DNA of 13,471 nt from a virus: the UHGV virus genome UHGV-0358078; one strand, written 5' to 3'. The notes beneath the pieces are model-generated. The model saw nothing but the letters and a program-made list of their open reading frames with translations. It was not told the origin of the DNA and made no database searches. This document shows positions 492-13,347 of the stretch, piece after piece. Position numbers and translations under genes: made by a program. Every line of letters starts with the position of its first letter. The first letter of the stretch is position 1.

Positions 492-1007
492 ATGTCTGTA
501 ACAATCAACATGAATCTTTATACCAAACGTGAACGTCAAATCTTGGCTAATCAGCCAGGCGTTACTACTATTGACGGTAAACCTATCGACCCATTAAAAG
601 TCGTTGTCGCACACAACTGTTTCGAGAAAGACTGGGACATCATGTATTTCCGTTGCCGTTCTGTCGCAAACGCACTTACCCAACTCTCGAATTATCATCC
701 TGGCCCAGTATTAAAAGACTGGGTTTGGTTAGTCCCTAAAACACCTTCAGCGATTGAGTATCCGTCGGGTATGGTCTATATTCGTCCTGTCGCTTATCCA
801 GAACGTTTAAAAGAATATCTGGAGGTTATCTGGGACCGACCTCGTAAAGAGCTGGTGACGATTATCCGTTTACTTCAAATATGCGATATCCCCAATGTTT
901 CGAATCTGAAACTTACGTCTCGCGATATTAACCAGGCTTACTGGGAACTAGAGTGGACAGAACCGAAATTCGAAAACACTAACCGTATTTTCTTGCACCG
1001 GGGGTAA
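492..1007 (+). CDS. Hypothetical protein (171 aa)
   Basis: ATG at 492 preceded by AGGAG (482-486) with a 5-nt spacer. Sits inside a 16-nt block (476-491) that is identical upstream of the gene at 4997. No recognisable domain. Confidence 0.75.
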   Translation: MSVTINMNLYTKRERQILANQPGVTTIDGKPIDPLKVVVAHNCFEKDWDIMYFRCRSVANALTQLSNYHPGPVLKDWVWLVPKTPSAIEYPSGMVYIRPVAYPERLKEYLEVIWDRPRKELVTIIRLLQICDIPNVSNLKLTSRDINQAYWELEWTEPKFENTNRIFLHRG

Positions 1008-1009
1008 AA

Positions 1010-1291
1010 ATGTTAGATTGGTTGTTGGGCTTAATTAACTCACGTCAACAGGAGCTTTATAAAGAAAACACGCGGTTACGGCAGCAGCTTAGTAACAATC
1101 GTCAAACCAAACGACAGTTAATTCGGATGGTAAAACAGCAGGCACGCTGTATACGAGATATTGATTATCAGTATCACCGTCTGAATACCTTAGACCCAAC
1201 AACAAAAGCTTTAGGCAGTACGATTGGACACGCACGGAAAGTCAGTCACGACGCGTTAGTTCGAATCGATACAGTAGAAGAGAAACTGTGA
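1010..1291 (+). CDS. Hypothetical protein (93 aa), Q/R-rich, predicted helical/coiled-coil
   Basis: ATG at 1010 two nt after the upstream stop (1005-1007), preceded by GGGGG. Composition rich in Q, R, L, consistent with a helical protein. Followed by a 7-9 bp hairpin at 1298-1320. Confidence 0.65.
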   Translation: MLDWLLGLINSRQQELYKENTRLRQQLSNNRQTKRQLIRMVKQQARCIRDIDYQYHRLNTLDPTTKALGSTIGHARKVSHDALVRIDTVEEKL

Positions 1292-1297
1292 TTAGCT

Positions 1298-1320
1298 CTC
1301 CCTCGGGAATACCGAGGGGG
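1298..1320 (+). other. Stable hairpin without downstream U-tract
   Basis: CCCTCGG (1300-1306) / CCGAGGG (1312-1318), extendable to 9 bp, loop gaata. The sequence after it (ataaggcgatttac) is not T-rich. Lies between genes 1010..1291 and 1335..1724. Confidence 0.5.
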
Positions 1321-1334
1321 ATAAGGCGATTTAC

Positions 1335-1724
1335 ATGATGCGTTTATTTTACTTAAAAAGGCGTTTGTTATTAAAAGCCCAACTGTTTGTTAACGGGAAG
1401 GTTAAAAACTGGCTGTGTGGTAAAAGGGTACAATATGTCGTTAAAGAAGGCGACTGGTATACGGAGGTTGTGACTTCCCCTAACGGTGAACTTATAAACG
1501 TGACTATTCGTGACGTTATGGTTAAGGTTGGCAGGGGAGGCGGTCTGTTGTTTGAATCGGAAACTATAAGAGTCGCTGCTAAACAATTGAAAGAAGGTCG
1601 GGTTATATTCAACGTTACTGCCCAGAAATATTACGACCATTTATTCGAATGTCAACGAGCAATGGACAGAATGACCCGTGAGATGCGAAGAATGCACATC
1701 ACGGAGATAACGATAGAGGTTTAA
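1335..1724 (+). CDS. Hypothetical protein (129 aa), basic N-terminus
   Basis: ATG-ATG at 1335/1338 with AAGG 8 nt upstream. Stop TAA at 1722-1724 overlaps the next start (TAATG). Minus-strand ORFs 1349..1612 and 1371..1640 lie entirely inside it and are treated as shadows. Confidence 0.6.
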   Translation: MMRLFYLKRRLLLKAQLFVNGKVKNWLCGKRVQYVVKEGDWYTEVVTSPNGELINVTIRDVMVKVGRGGGLLFESETIRVAAKQLKEGRVIFNVTAQKYYDHLFECQRAMDRMTREMRRMHITEITIEV

Positions 1725-2035
1725 TGATGGAAAGTAAAATCACAAACACATCGGCACCTGAGAACATTGTCAACTATATTCTCAGTGGCGGGTTGTTAGA
1801 AGACAACAAAGAAACGTGTGATAAACTCGTTTCTCAACTACTGCCGATTCGCTCAGAATATTGCGAAATCGTTATCTTAGGTTCCGAGTATTGCGTACGC
1901 TCTTACTGTCGTCGTTTCGAAGCCTTACGCGTTCCACGTACGTTAGGTGGTGTAATACTCTTAGTCTCTAACTTTCACAGTGCACACGTTCGTGTTGCAA
2001 CCTGGATTGCAAACGGAGGTAACAATGGTTTTTAA
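1724..2035 (+). CDS. Hypothetical protein (103 aa), Cys-rich
   Basis: ATG at 1724 shares one nt with the upstream stop (translational coupling). GAGG lies upstream. Several Cys residues (CxxxxxxC, CxxxC patterns), function unknown. Confidence 0.6.
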   Translation: MMESKITNTSAPENIVNYILSGGLLEDNKETCDKLVSQLLPIRSEYCEIVILGSEYCVRSYCRRFEALRVPRTLGGVILLVSNFHSAHVRVATWIANGGNNGF

Positions 2036-2333
2036 ATTACTAGGTTTCAAATCTTGTAAAGAGTGCGCAAAGCACGAAGAATATATCAAGTTATTAGAAG
2101 AAACAGTTGAAACGCAAAAAGAACTTATCTCTGAATACCGCGCGAAAACCGGTTCAGTAGAATATCTGGCTATCATTGTTTGTTCTATTGCGGAATTGGG
2201 TTGTGAGGGAAAATTACCTAAAGAAGAGATATTAAAACTATTAAAAGAAAAAACAGAGTTCTACCGTAAAGAAATTGATGATTATAAACGTGAAGTTATA
2301 AGAGCGAATTGGGAGGTTATTAATGAAGCGTGA
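2025..2333 (+). CDS. Hypothetical protein (102 aa), N-terminal CxxC
   Basis: ORF track starts at GTG 1980, but an in-frame ATG at 2025 has a strong SD (GGAGG 2015-2019, 5-nt spacer) and reduces the overlap with the upstream gene to 11 nt. N-terminal CKEC motif; K/E-rich helical C-terminus. Confidence 0.65.
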   Translation: MVFKLLGFKSCKECAKHEEYIKLLEETVETQKELISEYRAKTGSVEYLAIIVCSIAELGCEGKLPKEEILKLLKEKTEFYRKEIDDYKREVIRANWEVINEA

Positions 2334-2634: not shown

Positions 2635-2656
2635 GTGAGAGTTCAGCTACTCTCAC
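2635..2656 (+). other. Hairpin without downstream U-tract, upstream of the SD of gene 2686
   Basis: GTGAGAG (2635-2641) / CTCTCAC (2650-2656), 8-nt loop; followed by ttaaccaaacc, not a T-run. Confidence 0.45.
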
Positions 2657-2685
2657 TTAACCAAACCATTTTAGGAGCATATACC

Positions 2686-3180
2686 ATGAACTTCACTAGA
2701 CTTGATTACACTAACGAATTGGTTGACAAAGAAAAATACAAATTCACTGTTGACTTGGGTTACGGATTACTGGACGTAGAAAAAGATGTTCTGCACAAAG
2801 AATTCCGTGAGCAATTCGGTGCTTTGTTCTGCGCAGGTTTCCGCAGAAACACCATTGATATCGGTTATAGCGCAACAGCGTATACCGATGAAGAAATGTT
2901 TAAGCTGGTAACACAGATTGTCGGAACGCGTGGAGCCAAACGACTCAATTATTCCAACGAACTTGTTTCGAAAGAACATTACAAGTTCACCGTTAGACTA
3001 CCTGTTCGCCTCACAGAAGAAGATAAGAACATCCTCTATAAAGCCCTTCAAACCGAATTCGGTAAAGCGCTCAAAGTAGGGTTCCGTAATCGTAGTATCG
3101 ATATCGGAATTAGTGTGGATGTGTGTAGTGACGATGACCTTTACGAATTAGTTTCGGAAGTTATCGGAAAACATCTCTAA
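2686..3180 (+). CDS. Hypothetical protein (164 aa) built from two tandem ~76-aa repeats
   Basis: ORF track starts at GTG 2635 inside a hairpin; the in-frame ATG at 2686 has AGGAG (2673-2677) with an 8-nt spacer. Residues 5-80 and 86-161 align colinearly (RLDYTNELVDKEKYKFTV... vs RLNYSNELVSKEHYKFTV...; ...NTIDIGYS... vs ...RSIDIGIS...). Confidence 0.75.
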   Translation: MNFTRLDYTNELVDKEKYKFTVDLGYGLLDVEKDVLHKEFREQFGALFCAGFRRNTIDIGYSATAYTDEEMFKLVTQIVGTRGAKRLNYSNELVSKEHYKFTVRLPVRLTEEDKNILYKALQTEFGKALKVGFRNRSIDIGISVDVCSDDDLYELVSEVIGKHL

Positions 3181-3220: not shown

Positions 3221-3694
3221 ATGTTTAGCTTAGAAATCAACAACAACGTTCATGCCGCTTTCCATTCAGTAGAAAAAACCTATAAAATTAAAGATCTGTT
3301 TACTGGCAGAAGCGATGCTTTTTCGCTGATTAAGAATGGATGGAGAAAAAGCAAAGAGCTGAAACGTGATTCAAACCTTTACATTATTGAACGTTTAACT
3401 GTAACCGACAACCTTGTCACTGCACGTTATGACTTTGTTGTAATGGACGCTTTCATCCCGTTAGACAAACTGGTTATCTTGGCTGACAATGGGGAACGCT
3501 ACGAGGCGGGCGAGAACGGTGAACGTTCATTTACTAATGACGGTAAACTAAAAGTTCGCCATTCTGTAATGGCAGTTTGCTACGATGGTGAATGGTTAAG
3601 ATCTCTGAATAAAGGATTGGATTTGATTGACGCCGATGATTTAGAAAATTTCGCCGATGTTTTCTCCAACTATTTGTTTGAATATAAGTGGTGA
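3221..3694 (+). CDS. Hypothetical protein (157 aa)
   Basis: ATG at 3221 with AAGGA 7 nt upstream. Contains a short peptide repeat (DNGERY / ENGERS). No recognised domain. Confidence 0.75.
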   Translation: MFSLEINNNVHAAFHSVEKTYKIKDLFTGRSDAFSLIKNGWRKSKELKRDSNLYIIERLTVTDNLVTARYDFVVMDAFIPLDKLVILADNGERYEAGENGERSFTNDGKLKVRHSVMAVCYDGEWLRSLNKGLDLIDADDLENFADVFSNYLFEYKW

Positions 3695-3699
3695 GTTCG

Positions 3700-4131
3700 A
3701 TGAGAAAAGAACTAAAATCAGAGTTACGTGATTACATTCGTAAATACCCAGCCAGTATTCCGGTACTGGCTTCACTCTCTTTATCGGGTATGGACCTTAA
3801 TACCCTAACGGTAGAAAAATTCCACGAAGTGGTGAAGTCGTCGTATCAAATTGTTACCGATATGTCAGTGCGGAAACGTGCTGACTACCCAGACGGTGAT
3901 TTCGGTACAGAGATGTTCACGGACTACGCAGTTGCGTATCTGATGGGACGTCACTTTATCGATAAACTCAATACGGCTGTAGAAGGAGAAACCGTTACGG
4001 AAATTGTCAATGCTTGGCAACAACGTATTGTGAGTGACGCTTACTGTCGTCAAGCCTTAAAGAAAATGTCGGCGGTAGCATTAACCAATGACCAACGTGC
4101 TTTAGAGTTCCTTAAGCACAACTACGAATAA
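3700..4131 (+). CDS. Hypothetical protein (143 aa), paralog of the gene at 4997..5428
   Basis: ORF track starts at GTG 3688; the in-frame ATG at 3700 has a GGTGAG SD-like sequence upstream. Same length as, and colinear with, the protein at 4997 (LKSELRDYIRKYPASIPVLA vs LKDDIRNYIRNNPIALGVLA; ...ADYPDGDFGTEM vs ...EEYPVGELGDTM; ...LEFLKHNYE vs ...LMYLAHNVR). Confidence 0.75.
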   Translation: MRKELKSELRDYIRKYPASIPVLASLSLSGMDLNTLTVEKFHEVVKSSYQIVTDMSVRKRADYPDGDFGTEMFTDYAVAYLMGRHFIDKLNTAVEGETVTEIVNAWQQRIVSDAYCRQALKKMSAVALTNDQRALEFLKHNYE

Positions 4132-4996: not shown

Positions 4997-5428
4997 ATGT
5001 TTTTCGTATTAAAAGATGATATCCGTAACTACATTCGTAACAATCCGATTGCGCTGGGCGTTTTAGCAGGTTTCTGTCGTCCAAATACTGACTTCGATTT
5101 AGTTAAGTTAGAAGAATATCAAGAAATTGTGAACACTACCTACATGCACATCTGTAGCTGGGGTAAACGTCCTCGTGAAGAGTACCCTGTGGGTGAGTTA
5201 GGTGACACCATGCACCGTGACCAGAACCTGATGCACGAATTCGTTGAATACACACTGGAAAATCTTAACTATCCGCTCCTGGTCGACACTGTACCAGAAA
5301 TGGTTGACGAATGGTTTAAACGTGTTTATAGCGATCCTACCGCCAACAAGTTACTGAACCAGATGTCACAAACTTCTCGTGACATCGACACTCGTACGCT
5401 GATGTACTTAGCACACAACGTTCGCTAA
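4997..5428 (+). CDS. Hypothetical protein (143 aa), paralog of the gene at 3700..4131
   Basis: ATG at 4997 with AGGAG inside the conserved 16-nt block 4980-4995. Paralogy to 3700..4131 described there. Followed by a strong UUCG-tetraloop terminator. Confidence 0.8.
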   Translation: MFFVLKDDIRNYIRNNPIALGVLAGFCRPNTDFDLVKLEEYQEIVNTTYMHICSWGKRPREEYPVGELGDTMHRDQNLMHEFVEYTLENLNYPLLVDTVPEMVDEWFKRVYSDPTANKLLNQMSQTSRDIDTRTLMYLAHNVR

Positions 5429-5597: not shown

Positions 5598-6446
5598 ATG
5601 TCTCTTACGTCAAAACAGAAACTGCTAAAACTCATCAACACTGAAAACAATATTAGTCCACCGTTGACTTTCAGTGATGTTGATATCGGAGAACCTACTG
5701 GTACTGGGGTTGATACCCAGGTGGTTCTGACCTCTAAACTCAAAGGCGATGAGTCTACTACTTTAACAGTGACTTACCACCGTCGTAACTTACCTGACTA
5801 CCTAACAGGTGAGTTGGTATTCGGTAACGACAATGTGGTAACCGCATCCGATTTGCTTAATGCGATTAACGCAAAATACAACCTAAATATTTTACCCTCG
5901 GATATCGTTGACGCAAAAGTTGAAGGTGAAACCCATCAGCTTACCGCTAACGAGAAATCTTACGAGTGGTGCGGTGTAGTAACACTTACGCTGCGTGATC
6001 CTATTGACCTGACTGAACTGTTACCAGTTACTCAATTAGAGAATCTGGTAGAGTATCCGTCTACTAAGAAAGGTAACGCTGCGGTTTATTCTCACCCGAT
6101 TGATTTCACCGCAGAAAAAGATTACCTTGACCCGATTACTATCAACGACACCGTCGACTTAGTAGAGTTAGCCACTAAACTGGCTAACGTCGTTGATGAG
6201 AAATGGGTAAGTGTACCTAAAAACGCGGCTAACAACCTGTACGGTGCTAAAGTTATTTACGATGGCCCAACCGCAGGTTACGAAGGCGCAAATACGAAGT
6301 TCACTCGTGTGCTGGTACTGACTCTCAGCCCGTTGTGTTCTAACCTGACCGGTAATCTGTTAATCCACTTTAACGGTACCGATCGTCCGAAGTCGAAGAT
6401 TGAATTAGCACAGACTAATCCGGTCTTACCGGGATTCTTAGATTAA
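5598..6446 (+). CDS. Paralog-family protein (282 aa), possible virion/structural protein
   Basis: First ATG after a 169-nt intergenic region; weak SD (GTGAG). N-terminal ~70 aa (…LINTENNISPPLTFSDVDIGEPTG…TQVVLTSKLKGDESTTLTVTYHRRNL) is colinear with the N-termini of the genes at 6460, 9626 and 10234. T/V/N-rich, acidic composition. The structural role is inference only. Confidence 0.8.
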   Translation: MSLTSKQKLLKLINTENNISPPLTFSDVDIGEPTGTGVDTQVVLTSKLKGDESTTLTVTYHRRNLPDYLTGELVFGNDNVVTASDLLNAINAKYNLNILPSDIVDAKVEGETHQLTANEKSYEWCGVVTLTLRDPIDLTELLPVTQLENLVEYPSTKKGNAAVYSHPIDFTAEKDYLDPITINDTVDLVELATKLANVVDEKWVSVPKNAANNLYGAKVIYDGPTAGYEGANTKFTRVLVLTLSPLCSNLTGNLLIHFNGTDRPKSKIELAQTNPVLPGFLD

Positions 6447-6459
6447 GAGGATTACAGTA

Positions 6460-6957
6460 ATGACCAATCAAGAAACTATCTTCGACCTTATTAAAAAGGC
6501 TAACCCAGACGCTGAGTTCGACACCACCAAGGTCACGCTGGGTGACCCGGTCGTAACCACCGGTACGTACAATACCGAAATCACAGTTGCGTCAATTAAG
6601 AATCTCGGTTACACTAACGAACAAACGTTCCAGTATAACCGCATTGACGCAGGTTTGTATTTCCTGAACGTATTACCGAAACTGTTAGTGGAGTCTGCAA
6701 CGACTACCGCTGACTTACTGCCCGTAATTAACGAACAGTACAGCCTAACCCTTACAGAAGACGATGTATGGGTAGAACAGGTCGGTGAATTACCGCTGGA
6801 CGGCAGTGCAATCGAGCACGGCATTTTCTTCCGTCCTGAATGTTTAACCTGGGTAGGCGGTTTTACGGTGCGCGTTGCACGTAAACCTGCTGAAGATGTT
6901 GAACCTGCGCCAAAAGCAGCTAAAGCACGTACAACTCGTGCACGAAAATCCAAGTAA
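6460..6957 (+). CDS. Paralog-family protein (165 aa) with basic, A/K/R-rich C-terminal tail
   Basis: ATG at 6460 with AAGAGGA upstream. N-terminus (…LIKKANPDAEFDTTKVTLGDPVVT…NTEITVASIKNLGYTNEQTFQYNRID) matches the family motif. C-terminal PAPKAAKARTTRARKSK. Followed by a strong terminator. Confidence 0.8.
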   Translation: MTNQETIFDLIKKANPDAEFDTTKVTLGDPVVTTGTYNTEITVASIKNLGYTNEQTFQYNRIDAGLYFLNVLPKLLVESATTTADLLPVINEQYSLTLTEDDVWVEQVGELPLDGSAIEHGIFFRPECLTWVGGFTVRVARKPAEDVEPAPKAAKARTTRARKSK

Positions 6958-6960
6958 GAT

Positions 6961-6998
6961 TTGGGTGGGGTAAAACCCACCCAACGTTTTTCTTTTTT
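6961..6998 (+). terminator. Intrinsic terminator
   Basis: Perfect 9-bp stem ttgggtggg (6961-6969) / cccacccaa (6976-6984), 6-nt loop, then cgtttttcttttttg. Starts 4 nt after the stop of gene 6460..6957. Confidence 0.85.
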
Positions 6999-7021: not shown

Positions 7022-7612
7022 ATGGCTGAACGTTGGACTAAAGAAGGTATTATTGAAACCAAAACGGATTTAGAAGGCGGGTACGTCAACGACCCTGACG
7101 ACTTAGGTGCAGAAACGAACCACGGTATCACGGTAACGACTGCACGTGAGTACGGTTATAAAGGGAAAATGAAAGACCTTACCCGTGCTCAAGCTTTTGA
7201 CATTTACGATCGTGGTTGGTGGAAGAAACTCAAACTCGATGAGATTTTCGCTATCTCGCCTTTACTGGCTGACCGGATGTTTGATTTCGGAATTAACGCA
7301 GGTCGTGCCAACTGCGTGAAATCGCTACAGCGTATTCTCAACGTGTTGAACAACGAAGGTAAACTCTACGCGGACATCGATGCTGACGGTGGAATGGGGC
7401 CTAAAACGCTGGGTGCGTTGAACGCGTACCTGAAATACCGTAAAGATGAAGGGCTAAGCATTTTAATCTTTGCGTTAATCTCGCACCAAGTAACTTACTA
7501 CACGGAAATCTCCGAGAAACGTAAGCGAAACGAGAAATACACCTACGGCTGGTACGGCCGCGTGTTCAGAGAAATGGCAGATTATGCGGTAAAAGCGGGG
7601 TTAGTAAAATGA
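7022..7612 (+). CDS. Endolysin, GH108-type N-terminal domain plus PG_binding_3-like C-terminal domain
   Basis: ATG at 7022 with GGGAG upstream. N-terminal EGGYVNDPDDLGAETNHGIT matches the GH108 signature (EGGY…DPxD…GGxTxxGIT). Downstream FDFGINAGR…LQRIL…DADGGMGPKTLGAL matches the usual C-terminal peptidoglycan-binding domain of this family. No N-terminal signal or SAR segment. Confidence 0.85.
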   Translation: MAERWTKEGIIETKTDLEGGYVNDPDDLGAETNHGITVTTAREYGYKGKMKDLTRAQAFDIYDRGWWKKLKLDEIFAISPLLADRMFDFGINAGRANCVKSLQRILNVLNNEGKLYADIDADGGMGPKTLGALNAYLKYRKDEGLSILIFALISHQVTYYTEISEKRKRNEKYTYGWYGRVFREMADYAVKAGLVK

Positions 7613-7713
7613 ACTGGTTTGCTAAACTCTTAGCGTTATTGTGGAAAGCGTTAACGTCTGGTCGAAAACGTAAAGACGAAAAACGTGGGCAAGAATTCTT
7701 CTGGTTTTTGTAA
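7609..7713 (+). CDS. Candidate small ORF (34 aa), amphipathic N-terminus and basic centre; not in the ORF track
   Basis: ATG at 7609 overlaps the endolysin stop (ATGA at 7609-7612); GGGG lies 8 nt upstream. Translation MNWFAKLLALLWKALTSGRKRKDEKRGQEFFWFL, stop TAA 7711-7713. Fills the gap between the endolysin and the next gene. Too short for a conventional transmembrane holin. Confidence 0.35.
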   Translation: MNWFAKLLALLWKALTSGRKRKDEKRGQEFFWFL

Positions 7714-7728
7714 GGAAAGGTGTGGGTA

Positions 7729-8394
7729 ATGGAGAAGCTTCAATATAAACGTTTAGATAATAAGTGGTTTGTATTAACGGAGGATTACCATTATCCGTTT
7801 ACGTTACGTGAGATTTATCACGACCACGTACACTTAGACCGTGCGGTTTATTTAACCGGTGTATTACCTGACACGCAACTGTGGTTAACCGCTCCGAAAG
7901 GGTTCGTTACCGATTTAGCGTCAATTCCTGAACACCTCCAGGGAATTTTCCATCCTGACGGACCGTGGGCACCTGCGGCCTGCATTCACGACTTACTCTA
8001 TCAAAAATGTAACACGGAGCGTAGCTATCCCATGACACCGGGTGGTAACGTTTCGCGTATTATCGATAAAGAGTTCTCTGACTTAACATTCCTTCGTATT
8101 ATGCAGTCGTTGGAAATCTCGCCGTATATCTGCCAAACGTTTTATAAAGCCGTGGCGGAGTTCGGTTGGGATGCTTACGTAGACCCTAACGCGAAGCCGT
8201 CTTATACCACTAACGACTACCGTACGTTAGATTACAATCGAAACTATTTGTTCGTTCGCGAGTTTAAGGAACCCGCTATTCCTGACCACGAACGTGTTGA
8301 TATCACCACAGGTTGTCCCGTTAATGTCAAATACCTGAACATCAAACGGGCTTTTCTGTCTGGGAGGGAAGATGTTTCATCCAAATCCGAGTAA
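7729..8394 (+). CDS. DUF1353-like protein (221 aa)
   Basis: ORF track starts at GTG 7720; the in-frame ATG at 7729 follows AAGGAAAGGTG. GFVTDLASIP…ACIHDLLY resembles the (G)xxTDxASIP…HDxxY signature I associate with DUF1353; recalled from memory, not searched. No hydrophobic segment. Confidence 0.7.
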   Translation: MEKLQYKRLDNKWFVLTEDYHYPFTLREIYHDHVHLDRAVYLTGVLPDTQLWLTAPKGFVTDLASIPEHLQGIFHPDGPWAPAACIHDLLYQKCNTERSYPMTPGGNVSRIIDKEFSDLTFLRIMQSLEISPYICQTFYKAVAEFGWDAYVDPNAKPSYTTNDYRTLDYNRNYLFVREFKEPAIPDHERVDITTGCPVNVKYLNIKRAFLSGREDVSSKSE

Positions 8395-8887
8395 CTTTAA
8401 ACTCAAAGAGTTAGTACCACAATCGTACATCGCCAAATACGGTGATTCTGCAATTCGGTTTATGAACCCGTTGTTAATGATTTCGCTACAACAGATTCGT
8501 AACCGTTTCGGCAGAATGGTGATTAACTCCTCTGCTGCGCAACAGCGTGGCCTAAGAACCTTAGACTTTTTCATCAACCAAGAAAAGCCTAAGGGTGGTA
8601 ACTATAAACAACGTGCTTTACAACTCTACTCTGATTCAGGGAGTCAGCACAAGTTCGGTAATGCGTTTGACGCAACGCTTTTAGATTCGACAGTAAAACA
8701 AGTCCACGACTATATCGCCGCTAATCCTGACGAATTTCCGTTCATTCACTTTATCGAATGCGACATCAGTTGGTTACATATCGACGTTCGTAACCAACCG
8801 AATATCACGTTCTGGTCACCGAATCGCGGTACTGTGAAAGTCGTGAAACAAAGCCCTATCGATTGGAGCGCCTTAGTTAAAATCTAA
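8372..8887 (+). CDS. Peptidase M15-like (LAS-type zinc peptidase), putative peptidoglycan peptidase
   Basis: ATG at 8372 directly after GGGAGGG; overlaps the upstream gene by 23 nt. SQHKFGNAFD matches the SxHxxGxAxD zinc-ligand motif of M15/VanY-like peptidases, and WLHIDVR resembles the second His motif (xHVDVR). Followed by a palindrome and a bidirectional terminator. Confidence 0.7.
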   Translation: MFHPNPSNFKLKELVPQSYIAKYGDSAIRFMNPLLMISLQQIRNRFGRMVINSSAAQQRGLRTLDFFINQEKPKGGNYKQRALQLYSDSGSQHKFGNAFDATLLDSTVKQVHDYIAANPDEFPFIHFIECDISWLHIDVRNQPNITFWSPNRGTVKVVKQSPIDWSALVKI

Positions 8888-8978: not shown

Positions 8979-9003
8979 TACCCTCCTGCTAAGCAGGAGG
9001 GTA
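8979..9003. terminator. Bidirectional terminator between convergent genes
   Basis: Stem taccctcctgc (8979-8989) / gcaggagggta (8993-9003) with a 3-5 nt loop. A/T-rich on both sides (aaataaacc upstream, tttattatt downstream), so it is followed by a U-tract in either direction. Confidence 0.75.
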
Positions 9004-9007
9004 TTTA

Positions 9008-9487
9008 TTATTCTACCGGGTGCAGCATAGTTCCGGTGTCTGGGATACTGCCTTCGTGACATCTGAAGAACGTTACGCCTTTACCTTCACCCGTTTTGTA
9101 GTTGACGGTGGAATACGCAAACGTTGGGGTTTTCGACAGTAACCCGTTTACACGGTAATAGCGCTCACCGGTAACGACGTTTAAGTTACCGTCCACCTTA
9201 CCTAACAGGTCTTTATAAAGTTGCGGAGATTCAATTTTACCTTCGTCCCATGTAGCGACCCAATTCGCCCCTGTATCCATGACTAACACCGAAAGGGGCA
9301 TCAGTTTTAGGCTAGACGGTACCGGTTTAAAATCAGCGAATTCTTGAGAAGCACCTGTACAGGTGTAAATGACCATATCGTGTTGGTCAACAGGTACGGT
9401 GGAGAACTGACCTTCTGCGTTCGGCTGAATAGCACAACCTGCCAATGTCATTACAAAAGCAACGACCACGAGAATGCGTTTTAGCAT
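9008..9487 (-). CDS. Predicted outer-membrane lipoprotein (159 aa)
   Basis: N-terminus MLKRILVVVAFVMTLAGC has a basic n-region, hydrophobic core and lipobox L-A-G-C, with Ala at +2 (no Asp retention signal). SD-like GGGTGAG upstream on the minus strand. Opposite in orientation to all neighbouring genes and followed by a bidirectional terminator. Confidence 0.8.
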   Translation of the reverse strand: MLKRILVVVAFVMTLAGCAIQPNAEGQFSTVPVDQHDMVIYTCTGASQEFADFKPVPSSLKLMPLSVLVMDTGANWVATWDEGKIESPQLYKDLLGKVDGNLNVVTGERYYRVNGLLSKTPTFAYSTVNYKTGEGKGVTFFRCHEGSIPDTGTMLHPVE

Positions 9488-9625
9488 AATCTCACCCTTA
9501 TTAAAATTAAGAAAAATTATTTTTTCAGGTTAGCGCCTACTGCCAACCGTCATATCTATATTTTAGGAAATGTCTAAAATAACTTTCTTATGCAATCCAC
9601 CCCTACCACTTACGAGGTAAAAAAG
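9488..9625. promoter_or_regulatory. Divergent intergenic region, probable promoter region for the lipoprotein gene (minus) and gene 9626 (plus)
   Basis: 138-nt AT-rich gap between divergently oriented starts. On the minus strand, TTGGCA (plus-strand tgccaa 9541-9546) is followed about 17 nt later by an A-rich -10-like hexamer. This is a weak match, not a confident sigma-70 promoter. Confidence 0.3.
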
Positions 9626-10162
9626 ATGGCTAAAGCCTTCAAACAACAGCTCATCGAAGCTGTAATTGCTAAAAACTCAGACACCGCTTCTAATCTGACG
9701 GTTGGTGATGTCGATTTTGGCGCTGTTGCTGAGTTCAGCGGAGACGCTGGTCGTAACACCAAAATTACGCTGACCGCCAAGGCAGAAAGCCAGAACTTCA
9801 AAGGCGAGAAAGAATTCCATTATATCCGTCTGGCTTCTCAAGACCTGATCGGTGCCAAAGCTTACGAACAAGCCGGTAGCCTCGAACTGGAAAACTCGGT
9901 CATTGTAACCAAACTGAACGAAGAAATGGTTACTAAAGGTTATGTCGATGACGAGTTTGCAGAGAGCGAACTGTCCATTGAGAAAACTGACGGGGATAGT
10001 GGTGCTAAAGTTTACACTGTCAAAGTAAGCGAAGGCCACATCAAATTCCTGGCTGGTACCATTGCCACCTTCACTTATTCCAACCCAGCTCCTGAGAAGG
10101 TAGCTCTGGACGGTCTGGAAGGTGAACTTGATGGCTTTACTGCACCGGGTGTCGGTGGCTAA
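9626..10162 (+). CDS. Paralog-family protein (178 aa), possible virion/structural protein
   Basis: ORF track starts at ATG 9590 with no SD. The in-frame ATG at 9626 has GAGG with an 8-nt spacer and gives an N-terminus colinear with the paralog at 10234 (MAKAFKQQLIEAVIAKN… vs MAATNQMMLVALYNAAN…). Both end in ELDGFTA. Followed by a G12-containing hairpin. Confidence 0.8.
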   Translation: MAKAFKQQLIEAVIAKNSDTASNLTVGDVDFGAVAEFSGDAGRNTKITLTAKAESQNFKGEKEFHYIRLASQDLIGAKAYEQAGSLELENSVIVTKLNEEMVTKGYVDDEFAESELSIEKTDGDSGAKVYTVKVSEGHIKFLAGTIATFTYSNPAPEKVALDGLEGELDGFTAPGVGG

Positions 10163-10171
10163 GTAAATTAA

Positions 10172-10198
10172 ATCGGGGGGGGGGGGACCTCCCCCGAT
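10172..10198 (+). terminator. Terminator-like hairpin containing a G12 homopolymer
   Basis: atcgggggggg (10172-10182) pairs with cctcccccgat (10188-10198), one G-U pair; followed by atttctc…tattttt. Starts 10 nt after the stop of gene 9626..10162. Confidence 0.6.
10175..10186. repeat. G12 homopolymer tract
   Basis: Twelve consecutive G at 10175-10186, inside the hairpin after gene 9626..10162. Confidence 0.9.
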
Positions 10199-10233: not shown

Positions 10234-10764
10234 ATGGCCGCTACTAACCAGATGATGTTGGTCGCGCTTTATAATGCTGCTAACACTGAGCTACCACATC
10301 AGATTACTGATAAAGAAGTGTCCTTTGGTCTCCCTACTGCGCTGGAAGGCGAAAGTAAGAATACCAAAGTTACCATGACTGCACTACCGGGTTCTGAGAA
10401 TTTCAAAGGCGAAATCGAACTGCATTACGATCGTCTGGAGCCAGGTGTTGTAGGGCGTATTGAACTAACTGACGATCTGTCTCGTTGGGAAGATCAAAAC
10501 GAATTGCGCGCATGGTTACAATATTACATTAATAAAGTTAAACCGGACGATGCTATTCATCCAGCGGACGTTTCTTATTCTACCGAAGACCAGAAAGACG
10601 AACATGAAAACGTCACTCTGCGTACCGTGACGTGCACCGTTACCGAAAAGAACCTCCGTTATAAACCAGGTGTAATGGCAACTTTCGTAATTACACCGAA
10701 GGTTGTTGATAATCGTATTGACCTGGCCACCACCAACGGTGAGTTGGACGGTTTTACTGCTTAA
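10234..10764 (+). CDS. Paralog-family protein (176 aa), possible virion/structural protein
   Basis: ATG at 10234 with AAGGA 9 nt upstream. Shares the family motifs (…VSFGLPTALEGESKNTKVTMTALPGSENFKGEIELHYDRL…) and the C-terminal GELDGFTA. Followed by an 11-bp bidirectional terminator. Confidence 0.8.
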   Translation: MAATNQMMLVALYNAANTELPHQITDKEVSFGLPTALEGESKNTKVTMTALPGSENFKGEIELHYDRLEPGVVGRIELTDDLSRWEDQNELRAWLQYYINKVKPDDAIHPADVSYSTEDQKDEHENVTLRTVTCTVTEKNLRYKPGVMATFVITPKVVDNRIDLATTNGELDGFTA

Positions 10765-10833: not shown

Positions 10834-11508
10834 TTATTCTAATCCCATTTCCAGTGCAAGAGCACGGATAGTGTCGTAGTCACGCTGTTCAGCGTACTGA
10901 CGAATTTCACTTTTCTGGGCAGACATCGCGTTGTGTAGCTGTTGGTCACGTTTCACAATAGCCGCCAGCAACGTTTTACATTGTTCCAGCGTAAACGGTT
11001 CTATACGTGTATTCGACGTGTCCAACCAATAATCCGGTGCAGTTTCAGACTGGATATATTGGCCCAGCATCTGACGAGAGGTTTCGTCAGCTTGGAAATG
11101 ACGACCGTCAACTTCGATATAACCGTGACGCTGGTCTTCGTATCGGTGTTCAATTTCCAACATGATTTTCTGGATATCTAAATAGATATAGCGAGACGTC
11201 GAGCGCATATTCGAACGAATCTCATCCAGATCAATCTCCAGAACGTCAGTAATGAATTCTTTTGCTTTATTCAGTGTAAACTTCGACTCGATAGGAGACA
11301 TTTCGTAAGTTTGCATCTGAGCTAAAGCTTCTTCATCACTCATCCCTTCAATCAACTTATAGTGCAGTAAAGCACAGAACCCCGTACGTCCACGGTCTTC
11401 GTTACCTACACGCTCCATGTAGTTACCGTGACGGTCAATTGGGAGATCGTGAGCGAAATAACGCGCTCGAATCTCTTCTTTCGTTAAGCTTTTGTTAGAA
11501 GCAGACAT
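10834..11508 (-). CDS. Hypothetical protein (224 aa), last gene of the radical SAM operon
   Basis: ATG at 11508 (minus) with GGAG 7 nt upstream; overlaps the upstream gene's stop by 25 nt. Stop sits next to the terminator hairpin at 10803-10829. No motif recognised. Confidence 0.75.
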   Translation of the reverse strand: MSASNKSLTKEEIRARYFAHDLPIDRHGNYMERVGNEDRGRTGFCALLHYKLIEGMSDEEALAQMQTYEMSPIESKFTLNKAKEFITDVLEIDLDEIRSNMRSTSRYIYLDIQKIMLEIEHRYEDQRHGYIEVDGRHFQADETSRQMLGQYIQSETAPDYWLDTSNTRIEPFTLEQCKTLLAAIVKRDQQLHNAMSAQKSEIRQYAEQRDYDTIRALALEMGLE

Positions 11509-12050
11509 TCTTCTTCTCCAACCATACCTAATTCTTGCAGCAAGCCAAAATCAATCAACTGGAAGGTTTCAGAGAGATCGTTTGACCACACCACGTTTGC
11601 AATGTCGCGTTCTTCATCCGTTAACTGTGGTAACACATTTTCGTTGAACGTCTGATGCTCTACGTAATACGCATCGTAGATAGACGTGGAACGTAAGCAA
11701 CGGATCGGCATACGCGGGAAAGACACCGCTAATGCAGCAATAGATGCGCTACTCGGATTCTCCGCAGAATAACGAAGCAATTCGATCTTGTGGCGTGGAT
11801 AGTCCAGTACGCGTTGCTCGAAACCCGGATTACGTTTTTCGATTTCCACAACGGACTCATGGCCTGTTTCTGTACAGTAAACGGGAATCATCACGTTTAG
11901 CCCGTACTTAATTAACAGGGGTTTAATCTCATCTGTAAAGTCTTCGCCGGGGATAATGGCGTGGACGTTATAGAGTTTATGTTTGCGCAGAAAACGCTCA
12001 ACCAGGTGGAGTTTACGCTTCGTAAAATTGTGGATCAGAATTGATTTCAT
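11484..12050 (-). CDS. Hypothetical protein (188 aa), radical SAM operon
   Basis: ORF track begins at ATG 12074 with no SD. The in-frame ATG at 12050 is preceded by GAGG with a 6-nt spacer, which also shortens the overlap with the radical SAM gene to 38 nt. No P-loop or PP-loop motif. Function unknown. Confidence 0.7.
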   Translation of the reverse strand: MKSILIHNFTKRKLHLVERFLRKHKLYNVHAIIPGEDFTDEIKPLLIKYGLNVMIPVYCTETGHESVVEIEKRNPGFEQRVLDYPRHKIELLRYSAENPSSASIAALAVSFPRMPIRCLRSTSIYDAYYVEHQTFNENVLPQLTDEERDIANVVWSNDLSETFQLIDFGLLQELGMVGEEECLLLTKA

Positions 12051-13347
12051 TATTTGCCTCAGTAGGTTGTGCATTTAACGCACGTTTAGCTTGCTCACGC
12101 TCACGCGTACATTTCGGACAGTAACAAACAGACGAATCGTGCAGAGACGATGCGTGGACGGTACCCGTACGTTGACGCCAGTATTCTGCCGCCATCAGTT
12201 TTGCAGTCGTCCAACCACATTGACGTCGTTCAGCGTGGTACGCCTTACGGTCTTCCAGTGTCCCTTCACCGTTTTCGTAGGAAGCGGCTGCACAGCTCCC
12301 ACAACCGTGTTTCATCGGACAGCCTAAGCACGTTTCAGGATAGTTGGTGTATTGCGTCTGAATCTCTTCCAGCAGTTTCCCGCCGTCTAAGCTAACAAAC
12401 TCACGACCGACTAACTCAAACACCGCAGAGCGTGACGTTACCGTTGACATGAATCGGTTACAACCATACACCTTACGGTCAAAACCTAAGCAGGTCATAA
12501 ACGTCAACGTCCCACAGAACGGACGTAAACGTTCAGGGTTATAACGGTGCGTGTCGTCGTACAGCAGTTTATCACGCCAATCTGGGTCCCAAATCTGACG
12601 GAAATCCAGACCTTCAGGAATGATGTGGGACAACACGTTACGTGGATTGGTGTGCAGCCCTTTCTCAATCCAATAATCCATCACCTCGATCATCTGCAAC
12701 GCAATATCCGTTGCCATGCTCCGTGGAAGGATATCTTCGTACGTCACGTTACCTGAAATCGTACCGCCACCGGCAATATCAATTAACGACTTCATACTCG
12801 CCGCGTAATGCGGTAAGGTTTCGGTCGTGAAGGTTGCCTTGATACCCAGTTCGGCAATCCCCACTTCTTTTAAGTAGTTATAGCCACGAACGGCGGCTTC
12901 GTAAGAACCCTGACGCGTCGTTGTAAAAATACGATAGCGGTCATGAACTTCTGGCAACCCGTCGATAGACACACCGATGGAGAGTTTGTCTTTCCAACGC
13001 TCAACAATCTCACGGTTTAACGGACGGTCTAACAACGTCCCGTTCGTGGAGATACTGAACATATACGGACGATTATGCTCCTTACACAGCTGTTCTGCGG
13101 TTTCAAACGCCGCTAACAACAGTTTCGGTTGCATAAAAGGTTCGCCACCGATGATATCAATAATGACGTCGATGTTCGGAATATCTTTATCACGCTCAAA
13201 ACAGGCGTGTAAGAAATCCACGATATCCGCCGCTTTGTTATTACGCGGATACTTACGTTCGTAACAATACTCACAATCTAAGTTACAAGACAGGTTCGTT
13301 ACCACCTGGTAAGTACGTTGTGAACGTGGTGCTTCATTATTGCTCAT
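12013..13347 (-). CDS. Radical SAM enzyme with C-terminal SPASM-type Cys-rich domain (anSME-like architecture)
   Basis: CNLDCEYC (CX3CX2C) at residues 21-28; IGGEPF SAM-binding motif; STNGTLL and SIDG…HDRYR motifs typical of SPASM-family radical SAM enzymes. C-terminal clusters CGTLTFMTC…C and CLGCPMKHGCGSC (CX2CX5CX2C), plus a further CYCPKC. ATG at 13347 with AGGA 9 nt upstream and an in-frame stop three codons upstream. Confidence 0.9.
   Translation of the reverse strand: MSNNEAPRSQRTYQVVTNLSCNLDCEYCYERKYPRNNKAADIVDFLHACFERDKDIPNIDVIIDIIGGEPFMQPKLLLAAFETAEQLCKEHNRPYMFSISTNGTLLDRPLNREIVERWKDKLSIGVSIDGLPEVHDRYRIFTTTRQGSYEAAVRGYNYLKEVGIAELGIKATFTTETLPHYAASMKSLIDIAGGGTISGNVTYEDILPRSMATDIALQMIEVMDYWIEKGLHTNPRNVLSHIIPEGLDFRQIWDPDWRDKLLYDDTHRYNPERLRPFCGTLTFMTCLGFDRKVYGCNRFMSTVTSRSAVFELVGREFVSLDGGKLLEEIQTQYTNYPETCLGCPMKHGCGSCAAASYENGEGTLEDRKAYHAERRQCGWTTAKLMAAEYWRQRTGTVHASSLHDSSVCYCPKCTREREQAKRALNAQPTEANNEINSDPQFYEA

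Follow-up and report, generated by a model that had tools for sequence, protein, structure and literature searches.

How could a jumbo phage open the envelope of a Gram-negative host with putative lysis proteins that carry neither a membrane segment nor an export signal? The question is raised by a four-gene cluster at positions 7022-8887 of a 13,471-nucleotide stretch of the virus genome UHGV-0358078; this whole stretch is called the window below. A sequence-only reading had described the cluster as lysis-like, with two peptidoglycan hydrolases, a DUF1353-like protein and a 34-codon overlapping open reading frame (ORF), and with no visible holin or spanin. It had offered three explanations: the canonical lysis genes lie elsewhere, the peptidase and the DUF1353 protein are virion-associated, or lysis uses an unconventional trigger. 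The four ORFs exist as described, tightly packed on the plus strand, and a lipoprotein gene directly beside them had been overlooked. With confidence that is about evenly balanced, we believe that the cluster is a discrete, non-structural and probably late operon of soluble envelope-degrading lysis factors in an SPN3US-like jumbo phage.

Megablast of 5.3 kb against the GenBank phage collection gave no close match. Distant blastn and tblastn comparisons placed the window in the SPN3US/phiEaH2 group, jumbo myophages of approximately 240 kb, with about 69% nucleotide identity and 60-80% protein identity. Copies that are 95-99% identical to the window were found on IMG/VR contigs of about 221-225 kb. 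The window's phage is a jumbo phage of about 225 kb related to Salmonella phage SPN3US, and the two share the order gp156 (GH108), gp157 (DUF1353), gp158 (M15-like), gp159 (minus-strand lipoprotein), DUF4376 and two radical SAM genes.

The DUF1353 call was confirmed by Pfam (PF07087, E 8.1e-15, 54.7 bits against a curated cut-off of 22.5), and 45 of the 45 homologs found carry the same profile. TtaP of the typhoid toxin islet, the sole characterised DUF1353 protein, is a demonstrated phospholipase A2 (PLA2) with the catalytic residues H70, D71 and D85, and a distant relative of the group XIV secreted PLA2s (PMC11525133). H90, D91 and D121 of the window protein were invariant in an alignment of 28 homologous sequences, and the catalytic H-D…D motif was also present in four DUF1353 homologs from small phages. 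When PDB sequences were searched with phmmer and with profiles, neither the DUF1353 nor the M15-like protein had a meaningful match; therefore, structure prediction and profile-profile comparison were used. The AlphaFold model of the DUF1353 protein (predicted local distance difference test score, pLDDT, 91.3) had a PLA2 as its best PDB match, and its predicted core resembles that of group XIV PLA2s. When the DUF1353 profile was compared with verified group XIV PLA2 sequences by hhalign, the pairwise E was 2.5e-4; H90/D91/D121/F124 were paired with H64/D65/D85/F88 of SvPLA2, and the 'AVxxFG' motif with the SvPLA2 C-terminus. The hydrophobicity scan detected no N-terminal hydrophobic segment and no signal peptide in the protein, and the conserved disulfide cysteines of the group XIV alignment have no counterparts in the DUF1353 alignment. 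On these two grounds, a group XIV secreted PLA2 in the strict sense was ruled out. By sequence comparison, the protein is a relative of the group XIV PLA2s and not a member, as was concluded for TtaP, and we infer that it is a TtaP-class PLA2-like enzyme.

The gene neighbourhoods of DUF1353 were sampled in thirteen lineages, and a peptidoglycan hydrolase within two genes was taken as the criterion of linkage. Such a hydrolase was found in 8 of the 13, the window's lineage included. A GH108 gene lies near DUF1353 in the window's lineage, in Seoulvirus and in Erskinevirus, and an M15 gene overlaps DUF1353 both in the window and in Derbicusvirus (Phobos). The order in the Fusobacterium phage phiRTG5 is endolysin, i-spanin-like protein with a transmembrane domain (TMD), DUF1353 and holin; in the Caulobacter phage DMCA it is M15 peptidase, o-spanin-like proline-rich lipoprotein and DUF1353. 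The DUF1353 gene overlaps the endolysin gene in Pseudomonas Cygsa01 and an i-spanin-like gene in a Campylobacter Mu-like phage, and Fusobacterium Fnu1 has a peptidoglycan hydrolase within two genes. All of the sampled lysis-linked DUF1353 proteins keep the catalytic motif. A literature search found no paper tying DUF1353 or PLA2 to phage lysis.

The first gene of the cluster was correctly read as a GH108 protein with a peptidoglycan-binding domain, since both Pfam profiles exceed their curated cut-offs. Glyco_hydro_108 (PF05838) covers residues 17-94 (E 8.1e-22, 78 bits against 21.2), and PG_binding_3 (PF09374) covers residues 98-180 at the C-terminus (E 5.4e-17, 62.2 bits against 24.6). The protein also matched the PHROGs endolysin family phrog_315 (E 1.5e-42), and it matched the NCBIfam 'holin-associated N-acetylmuramidase' with 72 bits, under the equivalog cut-off of 240. 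Residues 18-21 read EGGY (LEGGYVND), which we take to be the catalytic motif of GH108 enzymes. Neither a signal peptide nor a signal-arrest-release (SAR) segment was found in it. By profile, this product is a GH108 N-acetylmuramidase endolysin.

The assignment of the fourth gene to the M15 peptidases held in part. The SxHxxGxAxD motif is present, and the zinc triad H93, D100 and H136 (H-x6-D … H), together with R62, E129 and D138, is invariant in 16-18 homologs; the structure model also shows the predicted LAS fold. The Pfam score, however, is under threshold (PF08291 Peptidase_M15_3, 14.8 bits against a cut-off of 23.2, N-terminal region only). One homolog, P0047, does carry PF08291, and the window protein matched PHROG 894 'endolysin' (E 1.5e-27). 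The motif and the model suggest an M15/LAS-fold zinc peptidase-like protein. The Erskineviruses have no M15-like gene at this locus, and the gene is therefore a variable member of the module.

The 34-codon ORF had been treated as incidental. Its existence was borne out, and its product (MNWFAKLLALLWKALTSGRKRKDEKRGQEFFWFL) turned out to be a conserved cationic amphipathic peptide. The net charge is +5, and the N-terminal 18 residues form a predicted amphipathic helix with a hydrophobic moment of 0.45, a value equalled in 1 of 2000 shuffles. Homologs stand at the same position in SPN3US (unannotated), SPAsTU, phiEaH2 (gp076) and Asesino (gp172), with the consensus NWFxxL…W/G-[KR]-AL…RRKR. None of 5000 shuffles scored as high as the real alignments for three of these relatives, and 2 of 5000 did so for the fourth. 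The frame is intact in close IMG/VR relatives, with 10 synonymous and 4 non-synonymous changes; the ratio of non-synonymous to synonymous change (pN/pS) of 0.10 is comparable to those of the three enzymes (GH108, DUF1353 and M15-like) against the same relatives (0.04-0.07, with 0.07 for the GH108 gene). The peptide has no Pfam, PHROG or NCBIfam match, neither a TMD nor a signal peptide, and an exhaustive phmmer search returned the peptide itself only. That search gave no sign of the peptide fused to an endolysin C-terminus, although one query of such short length has little power to exclude this. To judge from conservation across genera and purifying selection, the ORF is a real gene.

The endolysin might instead be extended by a frameshift that enters the 34-codon frame; the ATGA overlap with the peptide's own ATG and the separate annotated ORFs in relatives, however, make translational coupling to the endolysin the more economical reading. 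The screening criteria for disruptins are a length of <80 aa and a net charge of at least +4 (10.1101/515445). The peptide has 34 aa, a charge of +5, a predicted amphipathic helix and no TMD or signal peptide, and it is encoded in a putative lysis cassette. It is thus a disruptin-like candidate. The 289-nt 'gap' between gp156 and gp157 of SPN3US holds three conserved micro-ORFs, unannotated in SPN3US; the two that are extra in Seoulvirus, one of them a TMD peptide, are missing from the window.

Two strong hairpins appear to set the limits of the cluster. The intrinsic-terminator-like hairpin at 6961-6984 and the bidirectional terminator at 8979-9003 bracket the four ORFs, which therefore look like a single transcription unit with its 5' boundary at the former and its 3' boundary at the latter. 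Terminator-like sites are enriched in the region (19 found against 5.7 expected from shuffles). The promoter scan of the window found no sigma-70-like promoter upstream of 7022. This is expected, because phages of the SPN3US-like group rely on their own RNA polymerases. The features of the locus and of the related regions are listed in Table 1.

Table 1. Positions of the cluster, its flanks and the related regions discussed in the text (names beginning with L are our handles for loci other than the window)
Feature	Sequence	Position	Strand	Remark
GH108 + PG_binding_3 ORF	Window	7022-7612	+	196 aa; homolog of SPN3US gp156
34-aa cationic peptide ORF	Window	7609-7713	+	Start codon overlaps endolysin stop (ATGA)
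DUF1353 ORF	Window	7720-8394	+	224 aa; homolog of SPN3US gp157
M15/LAS zinc peptidase-like ORF	Window	8372-8887	+	171 aa; homolog of SPN3US gp158; 23-nt overlap with DUF1353 gene
Intrinsic-terminator-like hairpin	Window	6961-6984	+	9 bp stem, 6 GC pairs, T-run; ends upstream DUF7941 structural gene
Bidirectional terminator hairpin	Window	8979-9003		11 bp stem, T-runs on both strands; between M15-like and convergent lipoprotein genes
Predicted outer-membrane lipoprotein gene	Window	9008-9487	-	159 aa; lipobox LAG-C; homolog of SPN3US gp159
DUF7941 paralogs	Window	5598-6446, 6460-6957, 9590-10162, 10234-10764		Four, on both flanks of the cluster
Hairpin terminator	Window	10172-10198		12 consecutive G (ATCGGGGGGGGGGGGACCTCCCCCGAT)
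DUF4376 gene	Window	10834-11508	-	
DUF4376 gene	L050	2113-2781		
DUF4376 gene	L019	2385-3020		
DUF4376 gene	L018	2771-3313		
Radical SAM gene	Window	12013-13347	-	SPASM-like, Cys-rich C-terminus
ORF with internal duplication	Window	2635-3180		181 aa
Paralogous-looking ORFs	Window	3688-4131, 4997-5428		147 aa, 143 aa
Three micro-ORFs in gp156-gp157 'gap'	SPN3US	136033-136323		Gap of 289 nt; cationic-peptide ORF at 136033-136140
Micro-ORF in gap	L001	9576-9683		Cationic peptide
Micro-ORF in gap	L001	9625-9810		…DSGFFKLLRAIFxRRV… peptide
Micro-ORF in gap	L001	9774-9866		30-aa single-TMD peptide MQYDNDDWPKGLMPILLGLMVLTMLVRYMT
SLT transglycosylase	SPN3US	175058-175780		N-terminal signal- or SAR-like hydrophobic segment
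Two-TMD protein	SPN3US	176428-176688		86 aa; two genes after SLT
SLT + two-TMD protein	SPN3US, L023	25058-26688		Two-TMD protein of 86 aa
SLT + two-TMD protein	L040 (window's lineage)	532-2294		Two-TMD protein of 159 aa at 1815-2294
TMD protein, then directly lipoprotein	SPN3US	180017-180976		Lipobox LTG-C
Lipoprotein partner	SPN3US	180497-180976		Reads …LLTGC…
Same partner	L040 (window's lineage)	6469-6924		Reads …GLVSNGYG…; no lipobox cysteine; pair with TMD protein at 5962-6924
Cluster of four lipoprotein or signal-peptide small proteins	SPN3US	165783-167492		
Cluster of four tiny transmembrane proteins	SPN3US	171400-171997		43-67 aa

All window ORFs of at least 25 aa on both strands were scanned for hydrophobicity, with a Kyte-Doolittle value over 19 residues (KD-19) of 1.6 as transmembrane grade. 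None of the four cluster ORFs reaches this value, and so none qualifies as a holin, in agreement with the sequence-only reading. Among the credible genes of the whole window, a strongly hydrophobic segment occurs only in the lipoprotein at 9008-9487, as its signal peptide. No two-component spanin was found within the window; there is this lone opposite-strand lipoprotein gene without a TMD partner, and no holin-spanin module lies immediately beside the cluster. The lipoprotein was rejected as an o-spanin or u-spanin, since it has neither a TMD partner nor a C-terminal TMD, its mature part of about 140 aa is globular and not proline-rich, and it is encoded on the opposite strand. L15-x-G17-C18, C43 and C143 are invariant across five genera or lineages, and PHROGs places it in phrog_9559, a family of unknown function (E 3e-71). 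Its gene evolves faster than the cluster enzymes (pN/pS 0.20) and is convergent with the cluster, right after it, in every relative. Among its possible roles are those of an inhibitor, an immunity factor, a spackle-like protein or a protein of superinfection exclusion.

The following course of events is proposed. The four proteins would accumulate in the cytoplasm, because none of them has an export signal, and would gain access to the wall only after the inner membrane is breached. The breach would most likely be made by a holin encoded elsewhere, a candidate being the two-TMD protein near the SLT gene approximately 45 kb away; a breach by the peptide or the PLA2 themselves is less likely. 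In the periplasm, the GH108 muramidase would cut the glycan strands and the M15/LAS zinc peptidase the peptide stems or cross-links, and together these two hydrolases would dissolve the sacculus. The peptide would bind and perturb membranes and the TtaP-class PLA2 would hydrolyse membrane phospholipid; both would destabilise the outer membrane at its phospholipid leaflet and so supplement spanins or stand in for them. Phages of this group may therefore attack host membranes enzymatically during lysis. The option of an unconventional trigger gains support from the membership of DUF1353 in a PLA2 family (PMC11525133) and from the conserved cationic amphipathic peptide.

Lysis may instead be conventional, an alternative that we consider possible but rather unlikely. 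The lysis functions would then come from the remote region about 45 kb off, with an SLT of the signal-peptide or SAR type, a holin or pinholin with two TMDs, and a two-component spanin; the cluster would contribute one or two redundant hydrolases at most, and the DUF1353 protein and the peptide would have no membrane role and serve, for example, in regulation or metabolism. Several observations weigh against our operon of envelope-degrading lysis factors and in favour of this alternative. The RefSeq annotation of SPN3US shows neither holin nor spanin; the hydrophobicity scan, however, detected there an SLT transglycosylase whose N-terminus has a signal- or SAR-like segment, a protein with two TMDs, and a TMD protein directly followed by a lipoprotein. 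The latter pair, near 180 kb, recurs in different genera, where the lipobox cysteine is invariant and periplasmic cysteines are conserved, and it would fit a separated two-component spanin; the SLT and the two-TMD protein are a possible SAR-endolysin/pinholin-like pair. The window's own lineage carries this region too, at a distance of about 45 kb from the cluster. The jumbo phage phiKZ was long suspected of holin-less lysis and proved to have a fully canonical cassette, gp141/141.1/142/143/144 (PMC12894885).

On the other side, PHROGs ('unknown') and Pfam (no match) assign no function to the remote candidates. The spanin-like partner of the window's lineage carries an ordinary signal peptide and lacks the lipobox cysteine in 4 of 4 contigs (L040, L041, L042 and L047), whereas Seoulvirus, Erskinevirus and Machinavirus keep the lipobox; to judge from sequence, this loss would disable a true o-spanin. 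The partner is also 140 aa long and globular-looking, while typical o-spanins are short and proline-rich. A scan of IMG/VR with the profile of the lipoprotein partner missed the window's lineage, and the profile of the TMD partner recovered it. Conventional lysis would, in addition, leave unexplained the repeated occurrence of DUF1353 in lysis cassettes of unrelated phages and the translational coupling of the peptide to the endolysin. The suggestion that the canonical genes lie elsewhere is thus plausible as regards the existence of candidates in SPN3US and in the window's lineage, and it is weakened by the lost lipobox. SPN3US has two further groups of small exported or membrane proteins, one of lipoprotein or signal-peptide proteins and one of tiny transmembrane proteins.

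It is improbable, in our opinion, that the enzymes act after lysis or extracellularly, where they would clear envelope debris and outer-membrane vesicles that would otherwise trap progeny on receptor-bearing fragments, or attack neighbouring cells. Four soluble proteins without export signals would indeed leave the cell in large amounts when it lyses, a wall-binding domain is present in the GH108 enzyme, and the variable presence of the M15 gene speaks of an accessory composition. Intact Gram-negative neighbours, however, are shielded from endolysins by their outer membrane, and the tight association of DUF1353 with holin and endolysin genes in small phages agrees better with an intracellular role in lysis.

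Still less probable is a role in entry, with the M15 peptidase, the DUF1353 protein or both carried in the virion, as a tail-tip wall hydrolase and a phospholipase that aids genome injection. The cluster sits among virion structural genes: DUF7941 paralogs, a large family and abundant head proteins in the SPN3US study, lie on both flanks. A VP2 homolog lies between head and tail genes. DUF4376, a family weakly tied to tail-fibre proteins, is a frequent neighbour of DUF1353 (in Ralstonia RSL2, the Campylobacter Mu-like phage, a Helicobacter prophage, phiRTG5, Phobos and the window). Some SPN3US particle preparations yielded 2-6 spectra of gp158, with 2-3 in Table 5 of PMC5105663, and tailless heads yielded none. 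Against this, Table S4 of the same particle mass spectrometry lists gp138-155 and gp160 and has no rows for gp156, gp157, gp159 and gp161 (PMC5105663); in a later SPN3US study gp158 was very low in a mutant proteome and was judged to be non-specifically associated; and terminators separate the cluster from the structural genes. Since gp156 and gp157 are missing from the particles and gp158 is scarce, the cluster is therefore a non-structural island within a structural region. The data contradict the virion-associated option; they speak against packaging of the DUF1353 protein and, with less force, of the peptidase.

That the DUF1353 protein is a tail assembly chaperone and the cluster a mixture of tail-assembly and lysis genes is scarcely credible: phrog_1158, which it matched with E 3e-59, is labelled 'tail assembly chaperone' and many GenBank/RefSeq records read 'phage tail assembly-like protein', but the one characterised protein of the family is an enzyme, all aligned homologs keep the catalytic residues, and the gene lies in lysis cassettes and adjoins tape-measure or tail-tube genes in no sampled phage. 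We found no experimental basis for the label, and the endolysin-adjacent position of DUF1353 in eight lineages leads us to regard it as unfounded. Co-occurrence with DUF4376 may be its source.

A bolder claim goes beyond the operon of soluble lysis factors, namely that the DUF1353 PLA2, alone or with the endolysin-coupled peptide, is a new class of phage lysis protein that enzymatically breaches a host membrane, standing in for spanins at the outer or for a holin at the inner one. We regard this claim as doubtful. If it were true, the PLA2 would be the operative outer-membrane disruptor in the window's lineage, because the spanin-like partner there has lost its lipid anchor, and the TtsA/TtaP pair of the typhoid toxin would be a domesticated fragment of such a cassette. 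To our knowledge, the disruptin is the only spanin alternative. A phospholipase encoded in lysis cassettes would add a second means of opening a membrane, an enzymatic one, in phages of Enterobacteria, Pseudomonas, Caulobacter and Fusobacterium. About 15% of the phages of Gram-negative hosts have no recognisable spanin (10.1101/515445). The claim would also rationalise ttaP, the unexplained fifth gene of the typhoid toxin islet, and correct the widely spread 'tail assembly chaperone' misannotation, and a natural combination of three enzymes and a peptide is of interest for the engineering of Gram-negative lysins. The gene cluster itself is already deposited, partly annotated, in dozens of genomes. 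The TtaP-class phospholipase in jumbo-phage clusters and several small-phage lysis cassettes appears to have been unrecognised until now, and so does the conserved disruptin-like peptide of the window's cluster.

Some other features of the window were recorded. The two DUF7941 paralogs downstream of the cluster have diverged (phrog_4862), with a separate terminator after each of them; the homopolymer in the hairpin at 10172-10198 could suffer slippage or sequencing error. The radical SAM gene is always near the DUF4376/DUF1353 region, and in SPN3US and Phobos it forms a pair with a second gene of this kind. From their translations, the ORFs of 147 and 143 aa look paralogous (…DYIRKYPASIPVLA… and …NYIRNNPIALGVLA…), and the translation of the 181-aa ORF shows an internal duplication (…YTNELVDKEKYKFTVDL… and …YSNELVSKEHYKFTVRL…).

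Compared with known enzymes, the M15-like protein shares the LAS fold, the H-x6-D…H triad and SxHxxGxAxD with the M15 endolysins (T5 L-alanyl-D-glutamate peptidase, Listeria Ply500, Bacillus LysB4) and with the M15A Zn DD-peptidase 1LBU. Unlike the known M15 endolysins, it is below the Pfam M15_3 threshold, has a helical N-terminal half without a match, and is a second hydrolase beside a muramidase and not the sole endolysin. The DUF1353 protein resembles the group XIV PLA2s (Streptomyces violaceoruber 1FAZ/1LWB; Tuber borchii 4AUP) in its predicted helical catalytic core, H-D…D and C-terminal 'AVxxFG', but its identity is about 22% over 76 residues and it has additional beta-rich N- and C-terminal extensions. 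Mycobacteriophages encode a lipid-hydrolysing enzyme, LysB, beside the endolysin LysA, and it handles the outer lipid barrier after the wall is cut. The window likewise has a lipid-hydrolase-like gene near the endolysin gene. LysB, however, is a serine esterase of cutinase fold that acts on mycolyl-arabinogalactan, whereas the window enzyme is a predicted His-Asp PLA2 for glycerophospholipid, and the host envelopes differ.

Like phiKZ, the window's phage is a jumbo myophage of a Gram-negative host and has a soluble endolysin with a wall-binding domain; for phiKZ, too, no holin was visible for a long time. In phiKZ, the i-spanin, the o-spanin a class III holin and a regulator lie directly beside the lytic transglycosylase endolysin. 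The window endolysin is a GH108 protein, its neighbours are a peptide, a PLA2-like enzyme and an M15-like peptidase, and the membrane proteins are not adjacent. The phiKT disruptin gp28 is a cationic amphipathic peptide of 56 aa, said to have no homologs; its gene lies right after the endolysin and substitutes for spanins, and in phiKT a holin lies adjacent, while spanin candidates are lacking throughout the genome (10.1101/515445). The window peptide is likewise small, cationic and amphipathic, without TMD or signal peptide, and encoded directly 3' of the endolysin. Its size and charge (34 aa, +5) are, with the 56 aa of gp28, in the range of antimicrobial peptides such as LL-37 (37 aa, +6). 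Unlike phiKT, the window's phage has no adjacent holin and has remote spanin-like candidates, and no sequence relationship between the peptide and gp28 is established.

The typhoid islet differs from the window in being chromosomal and PhoPQ-regulated and in exporting a toxin without cell lysis. It has no M15 peptidase or cationic peptide, and TtaP has 125 aa, compared with 224 aa in the phage protein with its extra N- and C-terminal regions. Its muramidase TtsA is a member of the GH108 family. As in the TtsA/TtaP pair, a GH108/PG_binding_3 protein is combined in the window with a DUF1353 protein, both are without a signal peptide, and H-D…D is kept. The islet of Salmonella Typhi encodes TtsA along with TtaP, and TtsA-dependent release of the toxin requires an outer-membrane-perturbing agent (PMC11525133). 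The role of such an outer-membrane-perturbing factor is the one proposed here for the PLA2 and the peptide.

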